Assembly: GCF_046105845.1 (NCBI RefSeq)
Contig: NZ_CP151004.1
Source: Escherichia coli
GTDB lineage: Bacteria > Pseudomonadota > Gammaproteobacteria > Enterobacterales > Enterobacteriaceae
Strand: one strand, 5' to 3'
Length of the DNA: 64,000 nt
The notes below the pieces were generated by a model that searched no databases, had not been told where the DNA came from, and saw only the letters and a list, made by a program, of their open reading frames with translations. Positions 23,526 to 25,442 of the stretch are shown one piece after another (the first letter of the stretch is position 1; each line of letters begins with the position of its first letter). Made by a program: the position numbers and the translations under genes.

Positions 23526-23626
23526 AACTCCTGAGCAGGCGGCACTATGCCGCTTTCATAGGAGTTCTGAATGCTGGTGCTTTCTGTATGGCATAACCAT
23601 GCCTCTAACGGTTAAGTGCCTGCAGC
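23526..23626. repeat. ~100-bp direct repeat, copy 1
   Basis: aactcctgagcaggcggcactatgccgctttcataggagttctgaatgctggtgctttctgtatggc... near-identical to copy at 25343; contains hairpin gcggca-cta-tgccgc followed by ttt. Confidence 0.8.
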
Positions 23627-23895
23627 ACATGTTGCGGATCATTGGCAATCGCTCGCAGCAAAGCCTTTGCAGGCCCAGTCGGTGAACGTCGCCCCTGCTC
23701 CCAGTTACGCAACGTGTCTACGCTTACGGAAATAAGTTCGGCAAATTTAGATTGTGACAACCCTGAAGCGCGGCGTATTTCTTTGATTTTCATAGCATCA
23801 ACTTCAAAAGTCCGTGAAGGCTGTCGCGTTCCTTCAATAATTTCATTCATCTGGGCCATGCTGTGAGTCAACCGCTCAAAAAGTGCCTTATCCAT
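23605..23895 (-). CDS. HTH (XRE-type) antitoxin, HigA-like
   Basis: 96-aa ORF directly downstream of and abutting the toxin gene; XRE HTH IKEIRRASGLSQSKFAELISVSVDTLRNWEQGRRSP. Confidence 0.75.
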   Translation of the reverse strand: MDKALFERLTHSMAQMNEIIEGTRQPSRTFEVDAMKIKEIRRASGLSQSKFAELISVSVDTLRNWEQGRRSPTGPAKALLRAIANDPQHVLQALNR

Positions 23896-24207
23896 TTACC
23901 ACCTCGTATTTAACAACCGGAGCATTGCTTTTTCCTGGGGAGACAGATCATCTTTAATACCCTTACGATAAATAAGCAGTAATCTGATCTCATAATTTTT
24001 AACCTGATGAAAGTAAATAACCCTGACACCAGCACGTTTCCCCTTTCCTCCTGACACCCATCGAACCTTTCTTAACCCACCAGTTTCAGGTATTACCTCA
24101 CCATAGTCAGGATTCAAGGCCAGGAAAAACTGAAAACGACTGAATTCATCGTCGGTCAGCAGTTTTTGAACATCTTCAGTAAAAATTTCCGTTTCGATGA
24201 AGAGCAT
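23896..24207 (-). CDS. RelE/ParE-superfamily toxin, HigB-like (toxin-first gene order)
   Basis: 103-aa ORF; RelE-like core ...GGLRKVRWVSGGKGKRAGVRVIYFHQVKNYEIRLLLIYRKG...; upstream of its antitoxin as in higBA modules. Confidence 0.75.
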   Translation of the reverse strand: MLFIETEIFTEDVQKLLTDDEFSRFQFFLALNPDYGEVIPETGGLRKVRWVSGGKGKRAGVRVIYFHQVKNYEIRLLLIYRKGIKDDLSPQEKAMLRLLNTRW

Positions 24208-24423
24208 AATTATACGCCATTGGCTTAGAGTAACAATCCTTTTTGTACGTCATTGACGTACCCTTGAAACCACTAGCTTACTGATAGTGCTCCAGCAAAA
24301 CCACGTCTCTGCCGGGTTTGTCTTTACATTTGCGAGGCGCTTTCCAGATTTTTCACGCCCGTGAATTTCCCTGTATCCATCCAGCAAAAACGGGTGTATA
24401 AAACTGTACATTCATACAGCAAA

Positions 24424-25344
24424 ATGAGTTCTACTATGGCACTGGAAAAAGGAATTGCAGAGTTAGTCGAAGAGTTTATCGCTGCGGGTCGCCCCTCATC
24501 GCGTCAACAAAGTATTGCGCAGCGCAGGGAGGGCTATATCGCCAGCGCTGTCCTTGCGGGTGAGACAGAAACGCGGGTAGATATTCAGACTATCGAACTT
24601 GAAGGGATGATCTTACGAATAGTGTCACCGCTGAATGCCCCGACATTACTCCCGACGATAATTTATTACTACGGTGGCTGTTTTGTTAGCGGCGGGTTCG
24701 CAACTCACGACAACCAGCTGCGCCAGTTAGCCTATTACGGGCAATGTCGGGTTATTGCCGTCCAGTATCGGCTGGCACCGGAACAGACTTTCCCCGCCGC
24801 CCATGATGATGCGCAACGAGGTGCAGAATTAGTCTGGCAACACGCCGAACGACTCGGCGTTGATAAACAACGGATAACTCTTGCCGGTGACAGTGCGGGC
24901 GGACATCTGGCGCTGGTAACTGCTTTGCGATTAAAGCGTGCTGGCGAGTGGCAACCGGCACAACTCATCTTAATTTATCCCATGCTTGATGCGACTGCGC
25001 ATTTCGAAAGCTACATACGCAATGGTCACGATTACATCATCACACGCGACACTTTACTGAGCGGCTTTGAGATGTATCTGCCAGGCATTGAACGCAGGCA
25101 TCCTGAAGCCAGCCCTCTTTGGCGCGATGATTTCAATGGCTTGCCACCTGTACATATCATTACCGCTGAATACGACCCACTTTGCGATGAAGGTGAAGCG
25201 TTGTATCACCGCATGACAGGGCAAGGAGTGCAATGCACCTGCCAACGCTACCTTGGCGTTATCCACGGATTTTTTCAGTTAGGTGGTATCAGTGAGGCTG
25301 CGCGATCGGCGCTGCGGGATGTGGCCTGGAGAGCGGGAAGGTAA
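24424..25344 (+). CDS. alpha/beta-hydrolase esterase/lipase (HSL/Aes-like family)
   Basis: ORF-track 24361..25344; GDSAGG nucleophile elbow, YGGCF oxyanion-hole-like region, C-terminal His; start uncertain (ATG at 24424 or 24436, GTG at 24361). Confidence 0.75.
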   Translation: MSSTMALEKGIAELVEEFIAAGRPSSRQQSIAQRREGYIASAVLAGETETRVDIQTIELEGMILRIVSPLNAPTLLPTIIYYYGGCFVSGGFATHDNQLRQLAYYGQCRVIAVQYRLAPEQTFPAAHDDAQRGAELVWQHAERLGVDKQRITLAGDSAGGHLALVTALRLKRAGEWQPAQLILIYPMLDATAHFESYIRNGHDYIITRDTLLSGFEMYLPGIERRHPEASPLWRDDFNGLPPVHIITAEYDPLCDEGEALYHRMTGQGVQCTCQRYLGVIHGFFQLGGISEAARSALRDVAWRAGR

Positions 25345-25442
25345 CTCCTGAGCAGGCGGCACTATGCCGCTTTCACAGGAGTTCTGAATGCTGGTGCTTT
25401 CTGTATGGCTTCGCCATGCCCCTCGCGGCTAAGTGCCTGCAC
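25343..25442. repeat. ~100-bp direct repeat, copy 2
   Basis: Same orientation as copy 1; first ~66 nt differ at one position, remainder diverged; begins at the esterase stop codon. Confidence 0.8.

Follow-up and report, generated by a model that had tools for sequence, protein, structure and literature searches.

Two direct repeats in the fdhE-fabY interval

A 64,000-nucleotide stretch of Escherichia coli DNA (assembly GCF_046105845.1, contig NZ_CP151004.1; the whole stretch is called the window here) includes the variable interval between fdhE and fabY (yiiD), as recognized by open reading frames (ORFs) and family searches. Within this interval, two same-orientation copies of a sequence of about 105 nt stand on either side of a toxin-antitoxin (TA) module and an esterase gene. 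The arrangement raises the question of what such a repeat is: the paired ends of an inserted cassette, a functional RNA present twice, or a residue of some other rearrangement. The repeat unit is designated R and its two copies R1 and R2. We consider it likely that R is not an independent element, R1 being the native tail of the toxin-nadS operon, and R2 a second, decaying copy of it fused to the 3' flank of a gene of 617 codons. The main features are:

23526-23631, no strand given: R1, composed of the 3' end of nadS (23605-23631) and the 78-nt region downstream of nadS
25343-25447, no strand given: R2, a decayed copy of the R1 stretch, bordered on one side by the esterase stop codon and on the other by the 617-aa gene's 3' flank
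25422-25447, minus strand: fossil of the nadS 3' end inside R2, aligning to nadS 23605-23631; it has GAG in place of the stop codon TAG, lacks one nt and differs by four more substitutions
23308-23520, minus strand: 70-aa Arg/Cys-rich ORF of a phage protein family (phrog_4499, E 8e-14)
23605-23895, minus strand: nadS, helix-turn-helix antitoxin of 96 aa (NCBIfam NF041265 NadS, 61 bits against a cutoff of 60)
23896-24207, minus strand: RelE/ParE-like toxin of 103 aa (weak Pfam RelE match; phrog_5869, E 3.5e-27; RefSeq annotation)
24436-25344, plus strand: alpha/beta hydrolase of 302 aa, an esterase of the hormone-sensitive-lipase type (family search, homologues)
25448-25512, minus strand: 3' flank of the 617-aa gene, a GAATTCTG(A/G)TAA segment held in common with the Escherichia lineage of contig L016
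25513-27366, minus strand: the 617-aa gene (604 aa from ATG), encoding a CX5R protein with a predicted SopB/IpgD-like fold; the gene that R2 travels with
27742-28731, minus strand: fabY

A repeat search of the window returned direct repeats at 23526-23624 and 25343-25441 (99 nt, 92% identity, 1817-nt spacing), and global alignment carries the homology, with one 1-nt gap, to 23631 and 25447, or about 105 nt. When either copy is compared with the window by BLAST, only the other is found (E 4.5e-34), all remaining matches being chance 10-13-mers; a 33-base core of R has two occurrences in the window and none in any of 100 shuffles. An earlier reading of this DNA, made from the letters without database searches (the sequence-only reading), had described a same-orientation pair nearly identical over some 66 nt and divergent thereafter. 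Alignment and BLAST agree that the pair is real, and its two members are the sole copies in the window. A single difference falls in the first 66 nt (T23559 in R1, C25376 in R2) and seven fall in positions 67-99, so that identity is 98.5% over the first part and 79% over the remainder.

The anatomy of the pair is as had been described. R2 begins within the esterase stop codon TAA (25342-25344), at its second base, and R1 takes in the last 27 nt of nadS (23605-23631), that is, its final eight codons and stop. R1 also covers the Shine-Dalgarno (SD) sequence of the 70-aa ORF (CTCCT at 23529-23533, the minus-strand AGGAG, seven nt before the ATG at 23520), and the start codon lies outside R1.

Distribution of R and structural classes of the locus

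Among 5426 complete E. coli genomes, the population sample used throughout, 3369 carry R, with a median of one copy, a maximum of two, and the fdhE-fabY locus as the invariable site. Membership in a dispersed intergenic repeat family (REP/BIME, ERIC/IRU, RSA, box C) is therefore rejected, each genome having at most two places, all at this locus; the sequence-only reading had likewise recognized no REP, ERIC or other enterobacterial repeat in it. No match to R was found in 50,697 phage records, and none on true plasmids, four "plasmid" matches in PLSDB being E. coli chromosomes of 1-4.9 Mb filed as plasmids (NZ_CP134663.1, NZ_OL790696.1, NZ_CP141089.1 and CP061233.1). Among 100,044 GTDB species representatives, the exact 23-base core of R occurs in one E. 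coli representative and in one 445-bp contig. The latter, NZ_POTY01000570.1 (L008), belongs to a Micromonospora craterilacus assembly, has 0.76x coverage and is E. coli-like sequence from this locus, likely a contamination. Bound to its locus, without phage or plasmid matches, and found in E. coli only among species, R is thus a single-locus, E. coli-restricted sequence.

The genomes fall into four arrangements:

State A, 2309 of 5426 genomes (about 43%): (70-aa ORF)-R-nadS-toxin-esterase-fabY, with one R and a direct esterase-fabY junction
State B, roughly 700 genomes (about 13%), among them O157:H7 and 042: (70-aa ORF remnant)-R-617 gene-fabY, with one R and no TA-esterase block
State A+B, 329 genomes (6%): the arrangement of the window, with two R copies and an esterase-R2-617 junction
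K-12 type, about 2057 genomes without R (about 38%): no R, and an N-terminal remnant of the 617-aa gene beside fabY

Strains without the TA-esterase segment, whose inspection the sequence-only reading had recommended, keep one copy of R, not both. That single copy is a hybrid: its left flank is that of R1, and its right part and right flank are those of R2 (O157, 042, N3 and others). One record stands apart from its label: NZ_CP026085.1 (L001, labelled DH5alpha) has nadS-toxin-esterase and a copy of ISVsa5 where K-12 W3110 has neither, and may be mislabelled or not a K-12 derivative.

The bracketed genes are residents

Direct repeats that bracket a segment exactly, together with the approximately 700 genomes that lack the segment and hold one hybrid R, suggest a cassette of about 1.8 kb that integrated into an existing R site and left an attL/attR-like pair or a long target duplication; TA modules, moreover, are frequently mobile. 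An att-like duplication caused by insertion of a segment of about 1.7 kb had been put forward from the sequence on the same lines. Comparison with other genera largely refutes this reading. Citrobacter has the order fdhE-nadS-toxin-esterase-fabY, and its DNA is 70.9% identical to that of the window over 1725 nt; downstream of nadS there is another hairpin, without R. The order in Salmonella and in one further enterobacterial locus is fdhE-PIN-RHH-esterase-fabY (RHH, ribbon-helix-helix). Homologues of the esterase are 75-81% identical across Enterobacteriaceae, and in the Salmonella and Citrobacter loci the gene sits directly upstream of fabY and convergent with it. From nadS-toxin-esterase-fabY in Citrobacter and esterase-fabY in Salmonella it follows that the TA-esterase block is resident. 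Two esterase variants with 91-93% identity (P0033, P0034), considered as possible sister-species loci, proved to be E. coli genes with internal deletions.

The right end of R1 is native as well. NadS of Citrobacter is equally long and ends in a similar C-terminal sequence, HV(L/I)(Q/P)AL.. (...NDPLHVIPALAQ versus ...NDPQHVLQALNR), and this conservation identifies the right 27 nt of R1 as genuine nadS coding sequence. By ORF and family searches, no integrase, recombinase or transposase is encoded between the repeats, where the only ORFs are toxin, nadS and esterase. Also contrary to integration of a cassette are the 2309 genomes that have the TA-esterase block with a single R and a direct esterase-fabY junction, and the absence of R from phages and true plasmids. 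As an att site, R would lack a recombinase and would border a segment that is not foreign; a one-copy "empty" site does exist, and would equally be expected from repeat-mediated deletion or haplotype replacement. Transposon target-site duplications are short (2-14 bp) and flank terminal inverted repeats and a transposase, whereas R is 105 nt long and neither terminal inverted repeats nor a transposase were found with it; we know of no transposition mechanism that gives a target duplication of 105 nt. We attach hardly any credence to a cassette, and the insertion proposed earlier is not supported: the newcomer at this locus is the 617-aa gene, which lies beside a nadS fossil in two lineages.

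A nadS fossil beside the 617-aa gene

R2, and the R of every B-type (single-R/617) genome, contains a disabled version of the nadS tail. Its homology to the 3' end of the gene, its disabling changes and its lack of any upstream coding part all fit a gene-tail relic, or pseudogene fragment. The right boundary of R2 is what remains of nadS in E. coli.

Two metagenomic contigs of an Escherichia-like lineage, L016 and L017, provide a second view of the same association. Their fabY is 91.6%, their fdhE 92% and their 604-aa gene 77.6% identical to the window. Directly after the stop codon of the 604-aa gene come the shared flank GAATTCTGATAA, about 100 nt of nadS fossil, and then the middle of R. 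This fossil is longer than that of R2, with 37 nt at 92% identity to nadS 23638-23674 (codons ~74-86) in addition to the stop region, and the GC hairpin of R is absent. That the 617/604-aa gene abuts a truncated nadS in two lineages points to a replacement, in which its DNA displaced everything from the 5' part of nadS through the toxin and esterase genes to the esterase-fabY spacer.

The esterase-R2 junction and the order of events

The joint between the esterase gene and R2 lies in a short stretch of shared sequence:

25343-25348, plus strand: junction microhomology AACTCC, which overlaps the stop codon of the esterase gene

A-type genomes continue beyond the esterase stop with CTCCGGACCAGG, and after this comes a fabY-proximal hairpin not present in the window. 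Where the 617-aa gene is missing, the sequence after the esterase gene is TAACTCCGGACCAGG, which agrees with the beginning of R in 12 of 14 positions, AACTCC being identical. The position of the esterase-R2 joint within this microhomology marks it as an illegitimate junction.

A history of the following kind would account for these arrangements. The ancestral order would have been (70-aa ORF)-R-nadS-toxin-esterase-fabY. In one lineage, the DNA of the 617-aa gene would have replaced the 5' part of nadS, the toxin, the esterase and the esterase-fabY spacer, giving the B haplotype of O157, 042 and others and leaving only the nadS tail with its downstream region. In the window haplotype the two blocks stand one after the other, and the esterase end is attached to the beginning of R at AACTCC (6 nt exact, 12/14 overall). 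This could have come about by merger of an A and a B chromosome, with homologous exchange in fabY and an illegitimate one at AACTCC, or, before the replacement took place, by microhomology-mediated tandem duplication. Since tandem duplications are unstable, the first route, A-to-B replacement and then merger, is slightly favoured. In present-day genomes, R1 and R2 as direct repeats could delete the TA-esterase block by homologous recombination.

The second route can be developed into an account of all the arrangements: R-nadS-toxin-esterase was duplicated in tandem, the 617-aa gene replaced most of the second copy, and the single-R/617 types arose by later deletion between R1 and R2. The duplicated unit would begin precisely with R and finish with the esterase gene, at the AACTCC..GA.CAGG microhomology. 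In the single-copy genomes 100248, Z1323 and KOr019, R is chimeric, in every case with a left part of nadS type and a right part of fossil type, as such deletions would leave it, and the left of R1 joined to the right of R2 from NCTC10444, a two-copy genome, reproduces the R of O157 and its immediate flanks except for one single-nucleotide polymorphism. The chimeric pattern, however, would also result from stepwise mutation or exchange between haplotypes, and a second event inside an unstable tandem duplication is less likely than one in a single-copy locus. Deletion products predicted from six two-copy genomes are only 92-98% identical to the ten single-copy genomes sampled, and no single-copy genome has the left-flank allele of the window. 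We regard this order as possible, though somewhat unlikely.

The hairpin in R and its possible functions

The hairpin noticed in the original inspection, gcggca-cta-tgccgc followed by TTT, is seen in R1 and R2 alike, and forms the core of a larger structure:

23526-23566, minus strand: quasi-palindromic hairpin of R1, with outer stem AACTCCT/AGGAGTT and inner stem GCGGCA/TGCCGC; minus-strand folding free energy (dG) -18.8 kcal/mol
25343-25383, minus strand: hairpin of R2, with the same stems and a minus-strand tail ACCUUCC without a U-tract

On the minus strand of R1, a small hairpin directly after nadS is followed by this 41-nt compound hairpin, for which dG ranges from -18.8 to -23.6 kcal/mol across strains and the tail is UUUU(A/G)(C/U)UAUG. 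In R1 of the window the hairpin is followed by UUUUACUAUG, and its 3' arm holds the SD of the 70-aa ORF. A stem of -18.8 kcal/mol with the U-rich tail UUUUACUAU, placed directly after nadS, makes R1 probably the intrinsic terminator of the toxin-nadS operon, acting on the minus strand only. With AGGAG in the 3' arm, seven nt before the ATG, the hairpin would also mask the ribosome-binding site of the 70-aa ORF. In R2 the U-tract is missing, because the copy was cut at its junction with the esterase gene; there is no downstream minus-strand gene, and the R2 hairpin looks like a passenger.

Several observations would suit selection on both copies of R, whether as a terminator, as a leader that sequesters a ribosome-binding site, or as a small RNA. 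The first 66 nt are far better conserved between R1 and R2 than the rest; folding z-scores lie between -2.7 and -5.1 for the minus strand and between -3.0 and -3.8 for the plus strand; among 18 distinct copies of R the stems are nearly invariant and the internal loop variable; and the placement of the 70-aa SD in the 3' arm and the U-rich minus-strand tail of R1 are as a regulatory structure would have them. The wider comparison is less accommodating. No compensatory base change was found among the 18 distinct copies, where the only change of note is a template-switch conversion to a perfect palindrome. R matched no Rfam family at the gathering threshold in a search of the whole window, and a permissive search (E<=5) across 23200-25700 returned nothing but a chance miRNA match. 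R2 lacks both the U-tract and a gene to act on, the related lineage of L016 has no hairpin, and R is confined to one locus of one species. The 70-aa ORF, for which ORFs of about 51% identity exist in T5-like phages, is deleted, truncated or frameshifted in haplotypes of the O157, K-12 and "DH5alpha" types; it is deleted or frameshifted in most R-bearing haplotypes, and R is therefore not maintained for it everywhere. We think it unlikely that R is a functional RNA in both copies. The terminator or small-RNA-like element proposed in the sequence-only reading thus remains plausible as a terminator for the minus strand of R1, and finds no counterpart in R2 or in Rfam.

The palindrome conversion concerns R2 of elppa9 (L022:2593-2633) and 98205 (L032), in which the 5' arm of the hairpin reads GTGAAA instead of GAGCAG, all changed in one block. 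The result is a perfect 19-bp palindrome with dG of -33.9 rather than -22.2 kcal/mol, which has the appearance of a quasipalindrome template-switch mutation. Small ORFs also occur in R. A 14-codon plus-strand ORF (23570-23614 in R1, 25387-25431 in R2) has AGGAG 6 nt upstream and encodes MLVLSVWHNHASNG in R1 and MLVLSVWLRHAPRG in R2, and a 33-codon minus-strand ORF (25364-25465) spans R2 and terminates in the hairpin loop. Differences between copies and between strains are mostly non-synonymous and no context is conserved, so these were rejected as genes, and both are probably chance ORFs.

R1 and R2 might also be cast as a working recombination pair, through which the TA-esterase block is lost and is regained by way of a circular R-nadS-toxin-esterase intermediate, with the 66-nt core kept by selection or conversion and the hairpin serving as leader and terminator to couple the TA operon to the phage-derived 70-aa ORF. 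Nothing in the data specifically demands this, and we rate it as very improbable.

To return to R1 as native operon tail and R2 as its decaying copy, a number of results weigh against that interpretation. The far closer likeness of the first 66 nt than of the last 33 requires an extra cause, which could be constraint or selection on the hairpin, gene conversion between R1 and R2, or faster decay of the non-coding nadS fossil; in NCTC10444 both R cores have the same 1-nt deletion, which would fit gene conversion. The simple consensus terminator scan did not call the R1 hairpin, its stem being interrupted by an internal loop, and the assignment as terminator is made from sequence. The 12/14 microhomology after the esterase gene may alternatively be what is left of an R2 since deleted. 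Finally, a search with a synthetic R1xR2 junction found no genome combining the left-flank allele of the window, a single R and the 617-aa gene, and from this and the 92-98% matches of the predicted products it follows that no recent deletion has been caught.

The 617-aa protein

The 617-aa ORF is intact in the window strain, split or decayed in O157, and reduced to an N-terminal remnant in K-12. RefSeq labels the gene "transposase" and a pseudogene. The protein has no sequence match in Pfam, NCBIfam, PHROG or PDB, and this lack of a family match in the first three, together with the SopB-like fold of the model, contradicts the transposase label. About 16 full-length relatives, with 23-38% identity, turned up among the 1.84 billion representatives searched. 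In their alignment, C512, D517 and R518 of the CX5R motif GCKSAKDRT are invariant. An AlphaFold model (predicted local distance difference test, pLDDT, 82.7; predicted template modelling score, pTM, 0.84) matches SopB (8jzl, E 8.9e-8), Legionella SidP and SidF, and Fig4 in PDB, and IpgD/SopB-annotated and SAC-domain phosphoinositide phosphatases in the AlphaFold database. The model and motif make the protein a candidate for an uncharacterised phosphoinositide phosphatase of E. coli and Shigella.

Neighbouring genes and further observations

The remaining features of the interval are:

20759-21688, plus strand: fdhE (ORF and family search)
21870-22112, minus strand: yiiF, which like yiiE is an RHH gene (ORF and family search)
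22968-23246, minus strand: 92-aa ORF without a family match
24209-24236, minus strand: promoter-like site TTGTTA-16-TATAAT, by consensus match only, immediately upstream of the toxin gene

A sequence of about 84 nt upstream of yiiF (22167-22249) recurs upstream of yiiE (22605-22688) with about 79% identity, and appears as a secondary BLAST match in every comparison of the locus; the two may be paralogous promoter/operator regions of these genes. YiiF is the RHH antitoxin of a vapBC-like pair. The PIN toxin gene that is its partner adjoins fdhE in E. coli KOr019 (L021:944-1560) and Salmonella (L009:4180-4802) and is absent from the window and K-12, where yiiF appears to be an orphan antitoxin. 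Literature on NadS and yiiE/yiiF held nothing bearing on the fdhE-fabY locus.

To the left of R, positions 22787-23466 exist as two deeply diverged alleles with about 76-80% identity over some 290 nt. The second allele also lacks 23077-23466, and with it the greater part of the 70-aa ORF as well as the N-terminal portion of the 92-aa ORF. Both alleles occur in free combination with the TA-esterase and 617 states. On the other side, fabY is unusually polymorphic, with 93.9-97.5% identity between strains. Some A-type genomes (H56, H57; e.g. NZ_CP028116.1, O26 strain RM8426) have an insertion of IS621, of the IS110 family, within the locus. Elsewhere in the window, Rfam features are those expected for the region: the selenocysteine insertion sequence (SECIS) of fdoG at 16747-16805, the ES222 small RNA at 44573-44680, CsrC at 51458-51711, Spot 42 at 52739-52857, and 5S with partial 23S rRNA at 62112-64000.

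Significance and comparison with known systems

Tidy direct repeats around a TA module can mimic a mobile cassette, and here it is outgroup synteny that reveals the bracketed genes as residents. R is best understood as the surviving end of a gene that has been overwritten in another haplotype, a piece of ordinary genome history, neither a mobile-element site nor a new RNA family. The analysis documents four structural classes, with their frequencies, at an E. coli hot spot, and offers in R1 and R2 a plausible route for loss of the TA-esterase block. What the two copies are, the synteny, the nadS fossil, the sequence of the junction and the frequencies in the population are shown directly; the order of events, the role as terminator and deletion between the repeats are inferred. 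Its more interesting by-product is the gene that travels with R2, an unannotated gene of 617 codons whose product has a predicted SopB/IpgD-like fold.

The resemblance to the attL/attR sites of integrative elements lies in same-orientation repeats at the ends of a variably present segment and a single copy at the "empty" site. R differs in having no recombinase, an ancestral resident as cargo, one repeat that is coding, and no occurrence at any other locus or on a mobile replicon.

The hairpin of R1 recalls the Rho-independent terminators of type II TA operons, in which, too, the antitoxin gene is immediately followed by a GC-rich hairpin whose 3' tail is rich in U on the coding strand. In R, by comparison, a large internal loop breaks the stem, the SD of the following ORF falls within the hairpin, and the second copy has no U-tract; the terminator here is predicted from the DNA. 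The block change in R2 of elppa9 and 98205 is like quasipalindrome-associated template-switch mutation (PMC7202029), where an imperfect inverted repeat is made perfect at one stroke, except that it is a natural polymorphism in genomes and not the product of a reporter assay.

The esterase-R2 joint is of the kind expected from homology-facilitated illegitimate recombination or microhomology-mediated tandem duplication, with a novel joint at the short, GC-rich AACTCC and ordinary homology on the other side, in fabY. The former process has been documented experimentally mainly in naturally transformable bacteria (mentioned in PMC6382021), while at this locus it would be read from the junction alone.

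The locus as a whole compares most readily with the pseudogene relics and segmental duplications of E. coli replacement hot spots. There, too, alternative blocks lie between fixed flanks (here fdhE/yiiE and fabY), a truncated gene tail stands beside incoming DNA, and a low-copy direct repeat and deletion derivatives such as K-12 are found. What sets this locus apart from other hot-spot scars is that both alternative blocks are kept in tandem in 6% of genomes, and the scar therefore shows itself as a clean 105-nt direct repeat around a TA module.

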